A DNA stretch of 64,000 bases from an uncultured Gemmatimonadales bacterium (GCA_963707505.1 CAVPQB010000003.1:672001-736000), one strand, 5' to 3'. Positions 37,390 to 53,274 are shown, counted from the stretch's first letter. The notes: generated by a model not told the origin, from the sequence alone. Numbers and translations are program-made.

Positions 37390-37731
37390 TTACATCGTGA
37401 CTGCTGCGCCCGCGGCGCCGGCACCACTGGCCTTGCGACGAGAGCTGGACTTACGGCGAGAGCTCTTGCGCGCGGTCTTCTTGCGCGCAGCGCCCTTACG
37501 GGCGGTCTTCTTACGGCCGGAGCTCTTCCGAGCCGCGCTCTTGCGGGTGGTCTTCTTGCGAGTGCTCTTCTTGCGCGCGCCGCCCTTACGGGTGGTCTTG
37601 CGTGCGCCGCCCTTGCGGGTGGTCTTCTTACGAGCGCCGCCCTTGCGGGCTCCCTTGCGCGCGCCGCCCTTGCGAGCTGTTTTCTTGCGAGCACCTGCTT
37701 TCTTACGACCACCCTTCTTCGCTGCTGCCAT
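37390..37731 (-). CDS. Lys/Arg-rich histone H1-like nucleoid protein
   Basis: 113 aa of repeated ARKK/TRKGG/ARKS, no acidic residues; AGGAGA RBS; own terminator. Confidence 0.8.
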   Translation of the reverse strand: MAAAKKGGRKKAGARKKTARKGGARKGARKGGARKKTTRKGGARKTTRKGGARKKSTRKKTTRKSAARKSSGRKKTARKGAARKKTARKSSRRKSSSRRKASGAGAAGAAVTM

Positions 37732-41758: not shown

Positions 41759-43597
41759 CTACTTTCTGCCGGCGGTCTTCTTTCTGGCCGACTTCGCCGC
41801 TGCCTTTGCGACCGGCTTGGCGACTGGCTTGGCGGGAGCAGCGGCCTTCGGCGGGCGGGCGGCGACCTTCTTGACCGCAGCCTTGCGTCCACGCGCTGGC
41901 TTTGCAGGTACCGCCGGCGGCGCAATCGCAACTGCTTCTGCTGCGGATGCTACAGCGGCGGGCGCCGGCACAGATGATACAGCTGGCGTGTCATAATCCA
42001 CCACGCCGACGGACAGAAGGTCCATTGGAACTGCTGGTGTCTTTGGACCGGGGTGGCGGCCCCGTCCGCCGACGCCGCGCGGACCCATCCCACGTGGAGC
42101 GGGAGTCGCGTTCGCGGGAGCCTTGGGCGCGTTGGCAATCGCAGCTGCGCCGAGCTGATCCACGATTGGAGCAGCAACAACGGCTGGCCGCACTTCGTAG
42201 TCATCGCCGCGACGTCGCAGATCGATAATATCGGAGTCGTGCGCGTCCTTGAGGATCCGCGTGAAGTTGCGCTCGCTCAGGCTCTCGCTGTCTCTGCCGA
42301 GCAGCTCGTGCGCAACTCGGCGAACGTCGCTGGCGCGTGTGTTACCGCCATGCGTCGCGATGTATTCTACGGCGCGGCGCATCAGATCGAATGCTTCGTC
42401 GCGGGTGAGCCGTGTGCCGGATGCACCGATTCCGTCGCCGCTCAGCGCAGCTGGTGGCTGCGTAGCGACTGGCTGCGTGTCAACTGGCTCTGCAACCGCC
42501 TCAGGCGCGCGCGGTGTTGCGGCGGCGGCGGGGGCGACGTGCGCGGCGAACGACAACTCGGACTGCGCGGGCGCTGCCGGTGCTTCGACTACCGCGTGTT
42601 CTGCTGTCGCGGTGGTCTCGGGATGCTCGCCGCGCGGACGACGCTCTTCACGATCGCGGCCACGTCCGCCGCGACCGCGACGGCTGCGCGGCTCACGCGC
42701 GGGCGCTGCGGCACCGGCTGCTGTTGCAGGCGCGGCGGCAGTCGAGCCTTCGGCCGGCGCTTCGGTGGCGGCTCCAGCTTTCGGGAGATCGACTTCGAGC
42801 TGCCCGTTGTCCATCTTGTGCGAGGCGAGAATCCCGCGGTGCGCAGCTTCCTGCACGAAGCGAGTGAACTTGGACATGCCGAGGTTCTTCTCGTCGAACG
42901 AGCTGTCGATCTGCTGCATCACCTGCTTGAGGCGATCGGCGCGCATCACGTCGCCGTTGCGCTTCATTCGCTGTACCGCTTCGCCAGCCAGCTGGCACGG
43001 ATCCCACTTGGCGACTTCTTCCTCGCGTGTGTTCACCAGACCGGCGAGCGCGTTGTAGCTGTAGTACTCGTCGCAATTCTGAACCAGCAGATCGCTGGAC
43101 GATTCACGAATGCCGACGCCGATGACGTACTTGCCGTATTCCTTGAGCTTGATGACGAGACTCGAGAAGTCGCTGTCACCGCTGAGAAGAATGAACGTGC
43201 CGATCTCGGGTCGCGTGAACACGAGCTCGAGGGCGTCGATCGCGAGTCTGATGTCGGTGGCGTTCTTCTTGGATGAGCCGTAGGCCGGCGCGAAGATCAG
43301 ATCGATCGAGGATTCCGACAGCGGGACGATGTACTGCGGGTATCGTCGCCAGTCGGCGTAGGCGCGCTGGACCGATACCTTTCCCTTTACGATGTCCGAT
43401 GAGAGGAGGCTGCGGAGCTCGGCGTTCAGATCCGAGCGAATTCCCATCGTGACGTTGTCGAAATCGATGAGAAGAGCGGCGTTTGGAGCGTGGAAGGCGC
43501 CTCCGGAAGCGGAGAGCGTTGCGGCCTGCGGGCCGCGATGCACCGGCGCTACCGGGCCGCGAGCTGCGACCGGGGGCCGGATGTGACGAGGTGGCAT
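41759..43597 (-). CDS. NYN (PIN-like) nuclease domain + LOTUS/OST-HTH protein with low-complexity linkers
   Basis: IDFDN, KNATDIRLAID, SGDSDF, SFDEKNLGMSKFTRFV. Confidence 0.85.
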   Translation of the reverse strand: MPPRHIRPPVAARGPVAPVHRGPQAATLSASGGAFHAPNAALLIDFDNVTMGIRSDLNAELRSLLSSDIVKGKVSVQRAYADWRRYPQYIVPLSESSIDLIFAPAYGSSKKNATDIRLAIDALELVFTRPEIGTFILLSGDSDFSSLVIKLKEYGKYVIGVGIRESSSDLLVQNCDEYYSYNALAGLVNTREEEVAKWDPCQLAGEAVQRMKRNGDVMRADRLKQVMQQIDSSFDEKNLGMSKFTRFVQEAAHRGILASHKMDNGQLEVDLPKAGAATEAPAEGSTAAAPATAAGAAAPAREPRSRRGRGGRGRDREERRPRGEHPETTATAEHAVVEAPAAPAQSELSFAAHVAPAAAATPRAPEAVAEPVDTQPVATQPPAALSGDGIGASGTRLTRDEAFDLMRRAVEYIATHGGNTRASDVRRVAHELLGRDSESLSERNFTRILKDAHDSDIIDLRRRGDDYEVRPAVVAAPIVDQLGAAAIANAPKAPANATPAPRGMGPRGVGGRGRHPGPKTPAVPMDLLSVGVVDYDTPAVSSVPAPAAVASAAEAVAIAPPAVPAKPARGRKAAVKKVAARPPKAAAPAKPVAKPVAKAAAKSARKKTAGRK

Positions 43598-43706
43598 ACG
43601 TTCGGTTTTGAGTTTTCACTGCGCGCGACTTCAGGTGCCGGTGCCGGGGCTTTAGCCGTGGCAGCGGATCCTCGAAGTCGCGCAATCCCCTGTAATTTAC
43701 AAGGTC

Positions 43707-44930
43707 ATGCCCCCGAAGCAACTGCACTACCGTACGCGACTATTTCTGATCCTGTCACTTTTCGCGCTGGTGCCGGCGGCTTTGCTGACCGTTTTGTGGG
43801 GCGTCACGCTCGGCAGCGCGCTCCCAATCGTGACCGGCCGCGCAGGCTGGGACAGCGTGGCAGCAACGGGCCGCCGCGCGATCGCGGCGGCCGAAACGGC
43901 CCCGCTCAACCGAAAACAGCGAGCTGCATTCAGCGAGCATGAACGTGAATTGGGTGCCTCGTTGGAGCAGGCTGAGCGCTTCAATTACCTGGTTCGGCGC
44001 GGTGCGGAGGTCGTGGTGGTATCATCGATCATCGTTCTTGCGGCGATCGGATTCGGCGCTTCGCGCGTTGCGGGACATCTCAGCAGACAGTTGAGCAGGC
44101 CGATCGACGAGCTGGTCGACTGGACCGAGCTCATAAGGCGTGGCGAGCAGTTGCCGTCAGCGCCGCGAAGGCGTGGCGCCCCTGAATTCGAGATACTTCG
44201 CCAGAGACTCAAGATGGCCGCCGTGGCGCTCGATCTTGGCCGTCAACGCGCCGTCGAGGCGGAGCGTCTCCGCGCATTTCGCGAGAGCGCGCGCCAGGTT
44301 GCGCACGAGCTCAAGAATCCCCTGACGCCCATTCGCTTCGCGATCGATCGTCTGCGTCGCGGTGCACCGCCCGAGCTCGCCGAAACGGTGGAAGTTCTCG
44401 CGATCGAAACGGAGCGGCTCGAGCGCACCGCGCGCAGCTTCGCGCAGTTCGGACGCCTGCCGGAAGGCCCACCATCGCAGATCGACATCGGCGAGCTTGT
44501 GCGATACGCGGCGACCGTGACGGTTCCACCCACCATGACGCTGGACCTGACGGTCGCGGAGGGACTTCCAATGATACTGGGGTATCACGACGCGCTCGCC
44601 GGCGCGGTATCCAACGTGCTGCTCAATGCAGTCGATGCGTGCGAGGGCAAGGGCAAGCTGACGGTTCGGGTGTCCGAATCGTCTCTGCAGGGCAAGCAAG
44701 CAGTCAATATTCAGATAGAGGACAACGGCCCCGGAATCGGCGCTCAGCAATTGAAACGCATCTGGGAGCCGTACGTGACTAATAAGGCAGGCGGTACCGG
44801 ACTCGGACTCGCGATCGCGCGTCAGGCCGTGTGGGCACACGACGGATCGGTGTCCGCGCACAGCGACGTTGGAACGGGCACCAGGATCGAGTTCACCCTT
44901 CCGATTGATGCCTTGATGGCGGAGACTTGA
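43707..44930 (+). CDS. NtrY-like HAMP sensor histidine kinase
   Basis: Two TMs, HAMP, ARQVAHELKNPLTPI, NVLLNA, DNGPG, GTGLGL. Confidence 0.9.
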   Translation: MPPKQLHYRTRLFLILSLFALVPAALLTVLWGVTLGSALPIVTGRAGWDSVAATGRRAIAAAETAPLNRKQRAAFSEHERELGASLEQAERFNYLVRRGAEVVVVSSIIVLAAIGFGASRVAGHLSRQLSRPIDELVDWTELIRRGEQLPSAPRRRGAPEFEILRQRLKMAAVALDLGRQRAVEAERLRAFRESARQVAHELKNPLTPIRFAIDRLRRGAPPELAETVEVLAIETERLERTARSFAQFGRLPEGPPSQIDIGELVRYAATVTVPPTMTLDLTVAEGLPMILGYHDALAGAVSNVLLNAVDACEGKGKLTVRVSESSLQGKQAVNIQIEDNGPGIGAQQLKRIWEPYVTNKAGGTGLGLAIARQAVWAHDGSVSAHSDVGTGTRIEFTLPIDALMAET

Positions 44931-45226
44931 TGATGGACAAGGATGTCTTTGGAGCACTCATCGGTGGCATATGCTTCGTGTCGGTGACAACGGTTCTGCC
45001 ATTGTGCGTCATGTACCTGCGTCGCGGTAATCGGACAAAGGAACAACAGTCGCAATTACCGGTCGCTGATATCGTGGCGCGCCTGGAGAGAATCGAGACG
45101 GGAATGGAATCAATGTCCGCTGAGATCGAGCGCATAGGTGAGGGACAGCGCTTCACCACCAGACTGTTGAACGAGCGCGATCCGCGCATGCTCGAGAACG
45201 TGGACGCCGCAACACGGAGAGTTTGA
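44927..45226 (+). CDS. Small single-TM coiled-coil protein (paralog 1)
   Basis: TM then RLERIETGMESMSAEIERIGEGQRFTTRLL; GGAG RBS. Confidence 0.75.
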   Translation: MMMDKDVFGALIGGICFVSVTTVLPLCVMYLRRGNRTKEQQSQLPVADIVARLERIETGMESMSAEIERIGEGQRFTTRLLNERDPRMLENVDAATRRV

Positions 45227-45227
45227 C

Positions 45228-45584
45228 ATGGGTCCAGACGTAGTAGTACCGGTCAGCGGAATGCTGATGATACTCGGCATCGTGCTGGGAATACCACTCG
45301 TGCGGAGCTACACGAGACGTGTAGAATCGCGACCGGCGCGCGATGCGCTTCCGACGGGCGAGCTCTTCACGCGCCTCGACAGAATCGAGCAGTCCATCGA
45401 AGCGATGGCAACGGAGGTCGAGCGCATTGCTGAAGGGCAGCGGTTCACGACCAAGCTGCTTTCCGAAGTCCGTACGAGTCCACCGCCCGCGCTGGCCGCG
45501 GCGGTATCCAGTGCGCCCGCGCCTGCCGCTCCGCCGATGCAGCCGGACGGAACCGTCCTGTCCGAAGCTGCGCGACGGTCCTGA
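45228..45584 (+). CDS. Small single-TM coiled-coil protein (paralog 2)
   Basis: TM then RLDRIEQSIEAMATEVERIAEGQRFTTKLL; GGAG RBS. Confidence 0.75.
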   Translation: MGPDVVVPVSGMLMILGIVLGIPLVRSYTRRVESRPARDALPTGELFTRLDRIEQSIEAMATEVERIAEGQRFTTKLLSEVRTSPPPALAAAVSSAPAPAAPPMQPDGTVLSEAARRS

Positions 45585-45590
45585 CACAGC

Positions 45591-48314
45591 GTGCAGCGCG
45601 TACTGATCGTTGACGACGAGCCGAACATTCGCCGGATGGTCGGGGCGCTCCTCGCCGCTGAAGGATATGAGGTGCGCGAAGCCGCCGATGGTGCCGCCGG
45701 AGTAAGAGCGGTTGAAGAGGAGGAACCGGACGTCGCGTTGATAGATCTCATGATGCCCGGTGGCATGGACGGCATCGCCACCCTTGCGAAGATTCGCGAG
45801 CGCTGGTCCGATCTTCCGGTGATCATGATGAGCGGCCGCGCATCGCTCAGTGACGCAGTGCGCGCAACCAAAGTCGGCGCGGTGAACTTCCTGGAGAAAC
45901 CACTCGCTCCCGAGACGGTTCTTCTTGCGCTCGGCTCCGCGCTCGAGCTGAGACAGGCGCGCCGCGCGGCACGCGTGCTGCGCGCCGAGCTTGGCCGCAC
46001 CGGCGAGATGGTCGGATCGAGCAGCACGATGGTCCGTGTTCGCGAACTCACGGCGCGCGTCGCACTGAGCGATGCGCGCGTCCTGATCAGCGGTGAGTCT
46101 GGAACCGGAAAGGAACTCGTCGCAGCCGCGATCCACGAGCATGGCCCACGCCGCGATCGTCCGTTCGTGCGTGTGAACTGCGCCGCGATTCCGCGCGATC
46201 TCGTGGAGAGTGAGATGTTCGGCCACGAGAAGGGATCGTTCACGGGCGCCGCCGAGCGTCGCATCGGCAAGTTCGAGCTGGCCGACACGGGAACCCTGTT
46301 TCTCGACGAGATCGGTGATCTCAGCATGGAAGCGCAGGCCAAGCTTCTGCGCGCTATCGAGGCGAAGGAGATTCAACGCGTTGGCGGAAACAAGACCATC
46401 AAGGTCGATGTGCGCATCATCGCAGCCACCAACCACGATCTTGCAAAGGCAGTGGGCGACGGTGAGTTTCGCGAGGATCTCTACTTTCGGCTGAACGTCA
46501 TTCCGATCCACCTGCCGCCGCTGCGCGAGCGAGGAAACGATGTGGTCGAGCTGATTCACCATTTTTCCGAAATCCAGCATCAGCGCACGGGCCGCCCCAC
46601 GCTCACATGGTCTGGCGACGCCGAGGCGCGCATGCGATCGTATGCGTGGCCCGGCAATGTACGCGAGCTGGCGAACATTGTGGAACGGCTCGCGATTCTC
46701 AGCAATGACGCCCACATTACGAACGGAGACATCGCCGCGGTACTCCCACCCCCGCGTGACACGAACGCCGCGAACGCCGCCATCTCGGATGATCGCGGCC
46801 TCACGGATACGCTGGACGACATGGAGCGGCGGATGATCGCCGACGCGCTGGCGTGGGCGTCCGGAAACGTTGCGGAGGCAGCGCGCCGGTTGCAAACCGA
46901 TCGCGCAAACCTGTATCGTCGCATGAAGCGGCTTGGCATGGCTGCGACCGTGCTGGCGATCTGTTCGTTGTCGCTACTGGCCGCGCTATCAGCTTCGCCC
47001 CGAACGCTCGCCGCTCAGACCATTCCGACGAAGAGAGATACGACGATTAGCGATACCACGACCGTCTACGACTATCGCAACACGGACGATCGCCCATACG
47101 TGCATCTCGAGCCAAGTCTGTCGTCGGGTAAAACGTACAATCGGGTCGAAGGACTGTCGGTTTTATTCGGACCCGCTCTCACGATCGAAACGCCAAAGTT
47201 CGCGCTGGACGGAACGGCGTACCTCATCGCGCGTACCGCGCGCGGTTTCAGCACTGCCGAGCCGGACGGCGGACACGACCTTCGGATCAGAACGCGCTTT
47301 GGTCCGGATAAATCGATTGGGCTCGAGGGACGTCTGTACAGCGTTATCTCGCCGATCGAAGCCTGGCAGCTGACCGAGCCGGAAGAGGGCCTGGCATCGT
47401 TTCTTCTTCGCCGCGATTACCGTGATTACTACGGCCGACATGGCGGACAGATCAGTGCTTCGTGGACATTCAGTCGAAAGGCAGCGTTCTCCGCCGGCTA
47501 CGCGTTGGAACGCTGGACCACCGCCGACGAGGAGAATCCATTCACCCTGTTTCGTCCCAATGCACGGTGGCGGCAAAATCCGGCGGTCGACGAGGGTGCC
47601 TTTCATCTTCTGACCTTCAGCGGCACGTTCGATACACGCAACGACGAGCGGGAACCAAGCGGTGGATGGTATCTCACCGGTACGTTCGAGCACGGCTCGA
47701 GCCCATCGGCGATACTCGTGCCGCGAGCTCAGAATCCGGTTCCTTCCGGAATTTCGTCGCCGCCGCAACCGATCTCATACGGTCGGGTGTTCTTCGATCT
47801 GCGGCGTTACAACCGAGTCTCTCCGCGCACACAGCTGGACGGCAGGATCGTTGCTGGCGGCTGGGTTAGCGGCGACGAGCTACCACTGGAGCGAAAGCTT
47901 TCCGTGACAGGTCCAGGAGTACTGCCCGGATACGAATTCCGCGAGACGCAGGATGGACCCGACGTGATGCAGTGCGCGGCTCGTGGCGTAGTTCCATCGG
48001 ACAATCCCGTCATGTGCGATCGCATCGTACTCGGTCAGCTCGAGCTGCGGACACAACTTGCCTCACACCCGTTCGACATCTTCAACACACCCGCACTGCG
48101 TCTGCGCAGTGTCGGATTTACCGCAAGCCCCGTCGGTGTGTTCTTCGTCGATGTCGGCCGCGGCTGGCGCACCACGACGCCATGGCCATCCAGTTACAAG
48201 GCTGACGTCGGTGCGGGACTCGATCTCGGGCTCATCGGAGCGTATGTCGCGAAGGCGGTGACGGACGGGGGCGAACCGCTACGCTTCTTCGTACGCATAC
48301 GACGCAGATTCTGA
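45591..48314 (+). CDS. NtrX-like sigma54 response regulator fused in frame to a signal-peptide-like segment and an outer-membrane beta-barrel
   Basis: REC (VDDE, IDLMMP, EKP), AAA+ (GESGTGKE, GSFTGA, LDEIG), Fis-HTH; then hydrophobic stretch, YNRVEGL, amphipathic strands, terminal Phe. Confidence 0.85.
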   Translation: MQRVLIVDDEPNIRRMVGALLAAEGYEVREAADGAAGVRAVEEEEPDVALIDLMMPGGMDGIATLAKIRERWSDLPVIMMSGRASLSDAVRATKVGAVNFLEKPLAPETVLLALGSALELRQARRAARVLRAELGRTGEMVGSSSTMVRVRELTARVALSDARVLISGESGTGKELVAAAIHEHGPRRDRPFVRVNCAAIPRDLVESEMFGHEKGSFTGAAERRIGKFELADTGTLFLDEIGDLSMEAQAKLLRAIEAKEIQRVGGNKTIKVDVRIIAATNHDLAKAVGDGEFREDLYFRLNVIPIHLPPLRERGNDVVELIHHFSEIQHQRTGRPTLTWSGDAEARMRSYAWPGNVRELANIVERLAILSNDAHITNGDIAAVLPPPRDTNAANAAISDDRGLTDTLDDMERRMIADALAWASGNVAEAARRLQTDRANLYRRMKRLGMAATVLAICSLSLLAALSASPRTLAAQTIPTKRDTTISDTTTVYDYRNTDDRPYVHLEPSLSSGKTYNRVEGLSVLFGPALTIETPKFALDGTAYLIARTARGFSTAEPDGGHDLRIRTRFGPDKSIGLEGRLYSVISPIEAWQLTEPEEGLASFLLRRDYRDYYGRHGGQISASWTFSRKAAFSAGYALERWTTADEENPFTLFRPNARWRQNPAVDEGAFHLLTFSGTFDTRNDEREPSGGWYLTGTFEHGSSPSAILVPRAQNPVPSGISSPPQPISYGRVFFDLRRYNRVSPRTQLDGRIVAGGWVSGDELPLERKLSVTGPGVLPGYEFRETQDGPDVMQCAARGVVPSDNPVMCDRIVLGQLELRTQLASHPFDIFNTPALRLRSVGFTASPVGVFFVDVGRGWRTTTPWPSSYKADVGAGLDLGLIGAYVAKAVTDGGEPLRFFVRIRRRF

Positions 48315-48316
48315 CC

Positions 48317-48955
48317 GTGCGCTGGCTCGCGATCACCGTGCTTGCGACGTGCGTCTTCGCCGGCGTTGGCGCGGCACAATCGGCGCGCGTCGACATCGTT
48401 CTCCCGGCGCGGTCCGATCTCTCGACAGAACCGCCTGAGGTGCGAACGATCGGCGTTCTCGCGGCTGGCAGAACTGCGGAGCTGATACGGAACGGCTTTC
48501 CAGCGCGCCTGCATTACAAGCTCGAGCGCTGGGCGGCCGGCACATTCGTGAATGACGTGAAGGCAACTGCAGAGTGGGAGATGATCGCGCAATATGATCC
48601 GCTCGCCAAAACGTACAAGCTGATTCGCGCGACAACGAAAAATGCGGTAGTGGTGGGCGAATACGCAGAGCTGAGCGACGCGGATGCAAAGCTGGCCGAG
48701 GCGTTCCCTGCCCCGATCTCACCGCCGCGATCGGGCGAGAAGAGTTACTACGCGCTGACGTTGAACGTCGAGGCGATGTCATTGGGCGACCTCGACGAAG
48801 TGCAGCGGTGGCTGCGCGGTGAGCTGAGGCCAGCAGTACGTGGACACCGTAACCCCGGCACCGCGGTAAGCTCCGGCGTGAGAACGCTCGTCGTGCGAAT
48901 CCTGGGTGGCGAGCGCATCATATATCAGGCGAGCACGGGCGTGTTCAAGCCCTAG
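48317..48955 (+). CDS. Secreted DUF4390-like protein
   Basis: Signal peptide, ELIRNGFPARLHY.LERW, YDPL..TY; family call is an inference. Confidence 0.55.
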   Translation: MRWLAITVLATCVFAGVGAAQSARVDIVLPARSDLSTEPPEVRTIGVLAAGRTAELIRNGFPARLHYKLERWAAGTFVNDVKATAEWEMIAQYDPLAKTYKLIRATTKNAVVVGEYAELSDADAKLAEAFPAPISPPRSGEKSYYALTLNVEAMSLGDLDEVQRWLRGELRPAVRGHRNPGTAVSSGVRTLVVRILGGERIIYQASTGVFKP

Positions 48956-50231
48956 TGTCGCCGTCCGGAACAGCAAGCGCAACGATGATGTCCATGACGT
49001 TCGTGCCGGTCGGCCCCGTTCGCACGAGCGCACCGATGGATTTCCAGAAGGTGTGAGTGTCGTTTGCCGCGAGCGCGGCGCGTGCATCCAGGCCGTGTCC
49101 GCGCGCCTTGCTGATCGAATCGCCGTCGGCGACGGCGCCGGCAGCATCCGTCGGCCCGTCGATCCCATCGGTTCCCAGTGACACTACGGCAATCCCGGGA
49201 ACCCCATCCATCGCGATTGCAGCGCCCAGTACGAGCTCCTGATTACGCCCACCAACCCCGTTGCCATGGACGGCAACTGTCGTCTCGCCGGCATAGACCA
49301 AGGCAACCTTTTCGCCGACACGCGCACACTCATCTCGCGCGGTCTTCACTATCTCCATACCCACGACACTCGCCTCGCCAGTGAGTGATGTCGTGACAAT
49401 CCGCGCGGCATAGCCGAGTGCCTGCGCCTGTGAACGTGCAGCCTCCGCTGCCGTAACGTTACTGCCGATCACGTAACTCTCCGCATGCCGGAGATGCGGA
49501 TCCTCCGGCTTGGGCGACTCGTCGATTCCGCTCTCCAGATGGGAACGTACGGATGCGGGTACCCTATCCCACACACCACGCGATCGAAGCACAGCGATTG
49601 CGTCGGCGACAGTCGTAGGGTCCGCGACAGTCGGACCCGACGCGATGGTAGCGAGCGAGTCGCCGACGACATCCGACAACACGAACGCAACGACGCGTGC
49701 CGGAAACGCAATTGCAGCAAGACGACCGCCTTTTAGCTGGTCGACGTGCTTTCGGACGCAGTTCAGCTCCTCGATAGTCGCCCCTGCGCGAAGCAGCAAT
49801 GTCGTGGCGCTCGCGATATCGTCGACGGACAGCCCCGAAGCCGGAAGTGTCGTCAATGCAGAGGCCCCCCCGGAGATGAGGCACAGGAGAGTTTCGTTCG
49901 GTCTCAGCGACTCGGCGACCCCGAGAATCGCTCGCGCGCCTTGAGCGCCGCGCCCGTTCGGTATCGGATGACCACCAACGAAGCAGGCGATGGCGGTGGC
50001 GTCGATCGTTACTGGATCTGGTGAGATGACTATACCGCGGCGAACAGACTGGCCGAGCACGCCTGAAGCCGCTGAAGCCATCGCTCCAGCGGCCTTTCCA
50101 ACGGAGACGAGCGATACATCGCCATCAACGCGGTGTTGAGCCAGCGCGCGTCGTACGAGATCCCCCGGGTCGACTGCAGCGATCCCTGCGAGAGCGCAGG
50201 TAACCGCGTCCCTGCGAATCGCCTCGCTCAT
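48945..50231 (-). CDS. Glycerate 2-kinase (DUF4147/MOFRL family)
   Basis: GKAA, GHPIP, ISGGASAL, SDVVGD..IASGP, GGRNQE, GTDGIDG, TGTNVMD. Confidence 0.92.
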   Translation of the reverse strand: MSEAIRRDAVTCALAGIAAVDPGDLVRRALAQHRVDGDVSLVSVGKAAGAMASAASGVLGQSVRRGIVISPDPVTIDATAIACFVGGHPIPNGRGAQGARAILGVAESLRPNETLLCLISGGASALTTLPASGLSVDDIASATTLLLRAGATIEELNCVRKHVDQLKGGRLAAIAFPARVVAFVLSDVVGDSLATIASGPTVADPTTVADAIAVLRSRGVWDRVPASVRSHLESGIDESPKPEDPHLRHAESYVIGSNVTAAEAARSQAQALGYAARIVTTSLTGEASVVGMEIVKTARDECARVGEKVALVYAGETTVAVHGNGVGGRNQELVLGAAIAMDGVPGIAVVSLGTDGIDGPTDAAGAVADGDSISKARGHGLDARAALAANDTHTFWKSIGALVRTGPTGTNVMDIIVALAVPDGDTRA

Positions 50232-52695: not shown

Positions 52696-53274
52696 TCAGC
52701 TTGCAGCGAGCGTCGAATCGATCGATCTCAGGTCATCGAGCGTGGCGCGGCCGTAGAAAATCTCGATGTACTTGGACTGCGCCGGCGTAAGACGACGCAC
52801 CGCCCATGCCAACTGAACAAAATGCGGCTCGAACGGCGCGGAAAGCGGATGCATTCCGATCTCGCTCGGCAGGTGATTCGCCTTGCGCGTATTGCATGGG
52901 CTGCACGCGGTGACGACGTTGGTCCAAACGTTGAGACCGCCGCGCGACAGCGGGATCAGATGATCGCGCGTGAGTGACTCGCGCCCCTTGAGTACGGATT
53001 GCTTACGGCCGCAGAACTGACACGTGTAGCGATCGCGCGCGAAAAGGAACGTGTTCGTCACCTGGCGGCGGAACTTGCGCGGCACGTGGATGAAGCGCGT
53101 GAGGCGGATGACCGCGGGGTGCGGAATCGAGAGGCGTTCGGATCGGATCAGCTTGTCCGCATCCGTCTCCACAATCTCCGCCTTCCCATCGAGCAGGAGT
53201 CGGAGCGCACGACGTACCGGAACCATCGTCAGAGGTTCGAACGAAGCGTTGAGAGCAAGACAGCCGGCGCTCAT
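52696..53274 (-). CDS. HNH endonuclease
   Basis: LNASFEPL, RDRYTCQFCG, DHLIPLSRGG, NVVTACSPCN. Confidence 0.9.
   Translation of the reverse strand: MSAGCLALNASFEPLTMVPVRRALRLLLDGKAEIVETDADKLIRSERLSIPHPAVIRLTRFIHVPRKFRRQVTNTFLFARDRYTCQFCGRKQSVLKGRESLTRDHLIPLSRGGLNVWTNVVTACSPCNTRKANHLPSEIGMHPLSAPFEPHFVQLAWAVRRLTPAQSKYIEIFYGRATLDDLRSIDSTLAAS

Follow-up and report, generated by a model that had tools for sequence, protein, structure and literature searches.

How can a single open reading frame (ORF) yield both a cytoplasmic transcription activator and an outer-membrane barrel? The question is raised by a locus in a 64,000-nucleotide stretch of DNA from an uncultured Gemmatimonadales bacterium (GCA_963707505.1, CAVPQB010000003.1:672001-736000; here called the window), in which a sigma54 response regulator runs in frame into an outer-membrane protein (OMP). 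To our knowledge, natural bacterial polyproteins with products in different compartments, as these two would be, are rare. A search of the literature, mostly outside subscription papers and supplements, found no published description of this architecture.

One ORF encodes an NtrC-type activator and an Omp85-type barrel

The ORF begins with GTG and contains no internal stop over 907 codons (Table 1). As the preliminary description had stated, an intact REC-AAA+-HTH module, with all of its Pfam domains, continues in frame into the barrel; ATGs are present at 46923 (Met445) and 46938 (Met450), and translation confirmed that the barrel ends in Phe. Pfam matches to the full ORF included Sigma54_activat (140-307), AAA_lid_14 (312-389), HTH_8 (407-448), and Omp85 (616-878; E 5.9e-7, 29.7 bits, cut-off 24). 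At the junction, the patch RRMKR of the HTH immediately precedes a hydrophobic segment (aa 450-475), which consists of 26 mostly hydrophobic residues with a sole Arg near its end and terminates in TLAA, followed by Q476.

Table 1. Features of the fused ORF and of the genes beside it, in window coordinates
Feature	Position	Strand	Basis
Sensor histidine kinase, 407 aa	43707..44930	+	Pfam HisKA, HATPase_c
Small protein 1, 98 aa, hydrophobic N-terminal helix, paralogue of small protein 2	44930..45226	+	translation, tblastn
Small protein 2, 118 aa	45228..45584	+	translation, tblastn
Fused ORF, 907 aa: activator, internal signal peptide, Omp85-type barrel	45591..48314	+	translation, Pfam, conserved read-through
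Receiver domain, aa 4-111	45600..45923	+	Pfam Response_reg; D52 invariant
Sigma54 AAA+ domain and lid, aa 140-389	46008..46757	+	Walker A GESGTGKE, GSFTGA loop, Walker B, R-finger
Fis-type HTH, terminus NLYRRMKRLG, holds Met445 (ATG 46923)	46809..46937	+	Pfam HTH_8
Internal signal peptide, aa 450-475, predicted signal peptidase I site TLAA before Q	46938..47015	+	rule-based site search
Thr/Asp-rich short linker, aa 476-505, with D[ST][AILVMT] motifs	47016..47105	+	motif count
Omp85-superfamily beta-barrel, without POTRA, terminus FFVRIRRRF	47106..48311	+	Pfam, ESM Atlas, profile match; barrel start approximate
Secreted DUF4390-like protein, 212 aa	48317..48955	+	ESM Atlas similarity

By its domains and motifs, the N-terminal half is an NtrC-type sigma54 enhancer-binding protein. 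Receiver, AAA+, and Fis-HTH domains follow in order, with PF00072, PF00158, PF25601, and PF02954 all above cut-off. The G[AS]FTGA loop (GSFTGA in the window) was found in 103/104 fused and 51/51 split activators and the Walker A motif in 102/104 fused activators, and the phospho-acceptor D52 was invariant in a 48-protein alignment. Scores fell below every NCBIfam equivalog cut-off listed, including those for NtrX (NF051870; 388.8 against 600 bits) and NtrC (431.2 against 558.6). The fused proteins are filed in databases as NtrX or sigma54 regulators. They share with NtrC/AtoC/NtrX-type regulators the full domain set, the catalytic motifs, and an adjacent histidine kinase, but add a C-terminal signal peptide and a 430-aa barrel.

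The C-terminal half is, on sequence similarity, an Omp85-superfamily barrel, not BamA or TamA. Residues 476-907 alone matched PF01103 at 32.7 bits (gathering score 24), as did 19 of 25 family members at E<=0.01, and ESM Atlas placed the barrel at 0.98 to Omp85 clusters of Gemmatimonadota. A profile match to PDB 9ccg was weak (E 1.6e-4), and a single-sequence PDB search gave no match below E 0.7. Pfam found no POTRA match in the fused ORF, where the linker spans 30 aa, and the window genome contains separate, stronger Omp85 genes. Omp85 proteins with unusual N termini have been grouped as noNterm, patatin (PlpD), WD40, metallo, and lipo types (PMC4104836). The window's protein has in common with these an Omp85-type barrel, a C-terminal Phe, and the lack of POTRA, and it would be nearest to the noNterm type after cleavage; however, the partner domains in the accessible part of that account are periplasmic or outside the cell, whereas the partner here is a cytoplasmic DNA-binding ATPase that precedes the signal peptide. 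Gemmatimonadota are not mentioned in that part of the account.

The fusion is conserved and under purifying selection

The preliminary description had allowed for a strain-specific stop loss, with consistently two genes in relatives, or for a stop or indel at the junction. Instead, the fusion was present in several genera. Within genus g1 (22 genomes), the junction was visible in 21, and 19 of these read through it with neither stop nor indel; of the other two, G010 was split and G012 had an extra base. Two of the 19 genomes (G007 and G017) are unpublished, and the count without them is 17/19. When loci were cut out from related genomes, 36 genomes, drawn from four genera of Gemmatimonadaceae, showed read-through (g1, 19/21; g57, 10/10; g86, 5/5; g31, 2/2 with junction). 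A profile of 48 fused proteins was also searched against 401 family genomes; among the best 150 of 824 matches, stop-free full-length matches came from g1, g57, g86, and g31 only, and the fused tally is a lower bound, as the first screen was a stricter one. Across the phylum, sampled with 201 genomes, 0/80 matches outside the family were fused. The family samples include the unpublished genomes G017, G028, G078, G079, G177, G309, G335, G466, and G562. The conclusions hold without these genomes, of which G028 supplies one of the 74 split loci.

A database search with residues 400-640 extended the series. Among 120 of 378 hits that were listed, 81 continued in frame past the HTH (35-100% identity, the window's own included), and 80 other protein clusters thus share the read-through at 35-91% identity; these 81 proteins, having been collected by a junction query, are biased to junctions that resemble the window's. 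The named close relatives (69-93% identity) were Gemmatimonadaceae or Gemmatimonadota metagenome-assembled genomes. The fusion is present in several lineages of soil Gemmatimonadaceae.

Both halves of the ORF are under purifying selection. In 7/7 same-genus pairs tested, pN was far under pS in the REC, AAA+, HTH, and barrel regions (in the barrel of the G016 pair, pN was 0.028 and pS 0.36). In addition, an independent soil run (X1) gave a 975-nt contig that bridged positions 46386-47360 with 48 substitutions and no gaps. An assembly artefact or a decaying pseudogene has for these reasons only a negligible probability, even though the window genome is assembled to 83% completeness and genuine artefactual fusions do occur in the family (P0050 and P0086). 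Those artefacts, with broken HTHs or scrambled ends, look unlike the window's fused ORF, whose frame recurs in independent genomes and metagenomes at 35-93% identity. P0050 and P0086 were excluded from the fused counts as assembly errors, as was G012, in which the extra base lies in a G run and further frameshifts occur in the assembly. Long frames in G024, G047, and G026 arose by chance, and all three loci proved to be split on checking.

The split locus in G010 (L017), inside the fused genus, differs from G001 by 1 nt. This single difference makes the two genes overlap at ATGA, and the barrel, separate here, has a signal peptide devoid of basic residues. Either a true recent reversion or an assembly error could account for G010; a split inside a fused genus suggests that the fusion may be dispensable.

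Some split relatives carry a sigma54-type promoter pattern absent from the fused genomes scanned

The majority of relatives carry two separate genes. Where the barrel start could be placed (66 split loci), the spacer was >=100 nt in 31, 11 to 99 nt in 18, and <=10 nt in 17. A sigma54-type site (consensus GG[CT]AC[AG]N5TGC, as in L141, L153, L155, and L044) lay between the genes in 27/74 split loci, among them 21/31 with long spacers, and in 0/206 control windows taken from coding DNA. A GACAC motif was found 101-105 nt upstream of the site in 19 of these 27 loci, and this pattern is a candidate enhancer for the activator family; GGACA often occurred approximately 25 nt beyond GACAC. The composite pattern gave one match per genome, always at the barrel locus, in 10/24 split genomes and none in 22 fused genomes. 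The ten matching genomes are among the source loci of the pattern; the informative results are therefore limited to its single match per genome and its absence from the fused genomes. The pattern is common to two families of the order and is therefore probably ancestral. The promoters of the split loci suggest that the barrel gene was once the activator's own target and that, in the fused loci, the activator has been joined to that target.

The present target of the window's activator did not emerge from similar scans. The best composite score in the window genome was 19.7 (about 27-47 for training sites), and none of its 44 sigma54-like sites had a good enhancer; the genome does encode rpoN. 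A sigma70 promoter scan of 43400-49200 returned no sites. The separate OMPs also differ from the window's barrel half at their N termini. A bactofilin-like N-domain was detected in 17/24 of them (Bactofilin match) and is retained in g86; the match is absent from the window's barrel half, where the linker stands in its place, the domain having been lost in this lineage.

Fusion or fission recurred at one junction

A tree of activator plus barrel was built with FastTree from 70 rows, after near-duplicates at 78% identity had been removed from 144 and with G012 and loci missing either half left out. The fused state required 7 changes, 6 of them forced by starred branches. IQ-TREE, run on 30 chosen rows under LG+G4 without mixture, a more error-prone setting, again gave 7 changes (5 starred) and rejected a single fused clade (p-AU 1.2e-4). 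Split g45 was sister to fused g86, and in the g45 genome G076 a spacer of 247 nt persists and contains a degenerate sigma54-like site; split g64 was sister to fused P0060, and four fused proteins were nested among split g12 genomes. The fused forms are thus not one clade, and fusion or fission has recurred at the same junction. Such counts of changes cannot separate gain from loss. Since the regain of a spacer together with a promoter is unlikely, we infer that the genes fused independently at least twice and probably four times or more; a possible alternative is that the junction was transferred between lineages. Two near-intermediates were observed in genus g12: G297 (L109) has an in-frame TAA directly 5' of the barrel ATG, and fused P0065 retains LDG, the tail of the activator, together with a single Arg of the n-region.

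The path to the fused state probably led from a barrel gene with its own sigma54 promoter and enhancer, through a shrinking spacer and overlap, to fusion, more than once. The family offers a natural series of these arrangements (own promoter, short spacer, overlapping genes, fused). Together with the independent fusions at one junction, it can be used to test the function of a signal peptide 450 residues into a chain, as well as a sigma54 activator acting from, or released from, the membrane.

The junction carries a conserved, predicted signal peptidase I site

In a rule-based scan, an AxA-type site before Q was present in 79/81 fused proteins, at a median of 26 aa from RL[GA]; the residue at -1 was A, G, or S (A in 72). 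The h-region diverges among the fused proteins while this site stays. Lys or Arg within the first 6 residues after RL[GA] occurred in 1/81 fused proteins versus 85/98 separate signal peptides (98 chosen by rule out of 102). The barrel's own basic n-region has therefore been lost, and the charge is left to RRMKR of the HTH. Compared with separate signal peptides, the h-region was not clearly more hydrophobic (p=0.09 on the KD scale and p=0.03 on the Hessa scale), which suggests little adaptation towards SRP. Thus, the features of a signal peptidase I (SPase I) substrate (basic flank, h-region, and small residues at -3/-1) are present by rule.

The linker that follows ranges from 22 to 140 aa (median 34, n=71; 30 aa in the window). 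All 71 linkers contained D[ST][AILVMT], at a density of 6.7 per 100 aa, versus 0.16 in the activator. In the window genome, the motif occurred within the first 45 mature residues of 44/106 signal-peptide proteins versus 85/615 cytoplasmic-like proteins. In Bacteroidota, it is a periplasmic O-glycosylation motif (PMC12871550; PMC8550257); by analogy, one might guess at a similar system in Gemmatimonadota.

A polyprotein cut by SPase I is the preferred mechanism

The reading that we favor, at a probability of about 0.7, is that the ORF encodes a polyprotein that SPase I cuts into a free barrel and a membrane-tailed activator, which RseP may release. A single polyprotein would be translated from 45591, and its activator half would fold in the cytoplasm. 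The hydrophobic segment after the HTH would serve as an internal signal, with RRMKR as the cytoplasmic positive flank, and Sec would thread the C-terminal half into the periplasm, probably cotranslationally via SRP or SecA. SPase I would then cut between A475 and Q476, and the barrel, judged by its conserved motifs, would be delivered to BAM as the unfused orthologues are. The cut would leave the activator with a 26-residue membrane tail on its DNA-recognition helix, to act either tethered beside the kinase or freed by an RseP-type protease that clips the signal remnant.

The elements of this scheme have precedents. SecA or SRP target internal transmembrane (TM) segments and RseP degrades signal peptides (PMC9360617), OMP precursors are cut at AXA by SPase I (PMC13067283), and the membrane-anchored regulators RsiV and RsiP are cut by SPase I and then by RasP (PMC8844934). 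The window genome encodes two SPase I enzymes, Ffh, two M50 proteases, and other Omp85 proteins. When its 1,949 coding-like ORFs were filtered for similar polyproteins, none was found beyond the fused ORF.

A polyprotein and a nested gene had been put forward as alternatives in the preliminary description. The polyprotein half of that proposal was supported; the nested gene fails as a stand-alone alternative. The activator is under purifying selection and the frame has neither a stop nor a conserved frameshift exit, so the full-length fusion must be made, and this chain is needed regardless of an internal start. A less likely, dual route is that initiation within the frame, at Met445 (or Met450), yields most of the barrel as an ordinary pre-OMP, the full-length product supplying only activator and its barrel half being cut off or degraded. 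Met445 or Met450 was present in 81/81 fused proteins (Met445 in 79, Met450 in 42, including both proteins without Met445), and Met445 plus a median of 26 residues makes a signal peptide of normal length (M-K-R-L-G, h-region, AxA). Such a length, counted from Met445, is preserved at every junction, as an internal start would also predict. However, Met445 is as conserved in split relatives (ATG in 72/73, against 35/36 fused loci), so that the HTH explains its retention, and position 450 is I, L, or V in 39/81 proteins. Predicted mRNA folding was stronger at Met445 (-16.3 kcal/mol) than at 89% of 457 likely starts and stronger at Met450 (-23.2 kcal/mol) than at 98% of them, and synonymous divergence showed no dip across HTH and signal. 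No Shine-Dalgarno signal was found at Met445 or Met450, a weak test in which true starts were not separated from internal Mets, the 457 likely starts of the window genome scoring like 450 internal Mets. The poor pairing at these crudely chosen starts reflects either low Shine-Dalgarno use or a poor start set. The 16S tail of the window genome (C5) has the usual anti-Shine-Dalgarno sequence.

Recoding at the junction, by frameshift, stalling with tmRNA tagging, or mRNA cleavage, could likewise free the activator and make the in-frame tail a minor product. It is highly improbable: although a +1-frame stop lay within 15 codons in 17/36 loci, a -1 stop did so in 1/36, a slippery heptamer was found in 0/36 fused loci, and the window's own +1 and -1 stops are 144 and 37 codons away. 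Across the 36 fused loci, other-frame stops varied from 0 to over 200 codons away. Conserved RNA structure was absent at the junction (13 pairs with no compensatory changes in 7 genomes), as was a terminator-like site.

The chain might also remain uncut, as a trans-envelope protein in which a cytoplasmic activator, an inner-membrane TM anchor, and an outer-membrane barrel signal mechanically. The one open frame would fit, as would the 95-140 aa linkers or the retained bactofilin-like domain of some lineages. Against this stand the near-invariant AxA site, the function of the same barrel untethered in split relatives, and linkers of <=30 aa in 30/71 proteins, which at about 11 nm fully extended fall short of the periplasm width (roughly 20 nm in E. 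coli). The uncut form is accordingly very unlikely.

If the polyprotein is cut as proposed, the fusion could be near neutral, a deletion having removed the spacer and SPase I repairing the outcome. That it couples transcription to OMP export, as had been suggested at the outset, is plausible. A more tentative and doubtful reading makes the fusion an adaptation that arose repeatedly to sense envelope traffic: every activator molecule would start out joined to a barrel and could bind DNA only once the Sec, SPase I, and RseP steps had detached its DNA-recognition helix from the membrane. If so, sigma54 transcription would report export capacity directly, through an SREBP-like release built on a polyprotein.

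In its proposed action, the fused ORF resembles several SPase-cut precursors without belonging to them. Like RsiV and RsiP, it would have a cytoplasmic regulator, one TM segment, an SPase I site on the outer face, and possibly a site-2 cut; those proteins, as described in the accessible part of the source, are Gram-positive inhibitors (anti-sigma factors) destroyed upon a signal, whereas the window's protein would yield a sigma54 activator and a functional OMP (PMC8844934). Its canonical AxA site suggests constitutive cutting, unlike that of RsiV and RsiP. The FbcH cytochrome b-c1 precursor of Bradyrhizobium is reportedly another polyprotein of bacteria that is divided at a signal peptide inside the chain, but both of its products are said to be subunits of one inner-membrane complex, with no regulator and no OMP.

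Automatic annotation hides such fusions under plain NtrX or sigma54 regulator labels. One named fused copy, GJG88036.1, belongs to Gemmatimonadetes bacterium T265, which we take to be a cultured strain; direct tests would then be possible.

The fused gene lies in a conserved cluster

A histidine kinase gene was located 5' of the activator in 23/23 loci examined. In the window, the kinase is predicted to have two hydrophobic segments flanking a short periplasmic loop and is the likely cognate partner of the activator. It matched only HisKA and HATPase, with no PDC or PAS match, and no NtrY model was among its 25 best NCBIfam matches. A DUF4390-like gene followed the barrel in 23/23 loci. Its product in the window resembled, at an Atlas similarity of 0.97, clusters with PF14334 in 23-26% of their members, a lead with a recognition value of 2153, under the tool's 2300 mark, and no direct Pfam match at E<=0.1. 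From its position and this similarity, the protein is a possible periplasmic third component of the system.

The NtrYX-family system PlrPSR of Bordetella includes a periplasmic DUF4390 protein, PlrP (PMC13001219). Both clusters combine a kinase, a regulator, and a secreted DUF4390 or DUF4390-like protein; they differ, as far as the accessible account of PlrPSR goes, in gene order and in the Omp85 barrel of the window's cluster, and the DUF4390 assignment here is a lead. That account covers proteobacteria and, in its accessible part, mentions neither Gemmatimonadota nor the outer membrane.

Between kinase and activator, the small-protein family occurred in 0-4 copies across the 23 loci. The tandem pair in the window (44930-45584) has a hydrophobic N-terminal helix and an RLERIE...IGEGQRFTT core without a family match, and small protein 2 had no Pfam or NCBIfam match. 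A gene for an NYN-domain protein (41759-43597, minus strand in the window), divergent from the kinase, adjoined it in 23/23 loci. Two other minus-strand genes of the window were noted by eye: 37390-37731 encodes a 113-aa Lys/Arg-rich repeat protein (KKGGARK repeats) that is histone H1-like, and 52696-53274 encodes a 192-aa protein with an HNH-like pattern.
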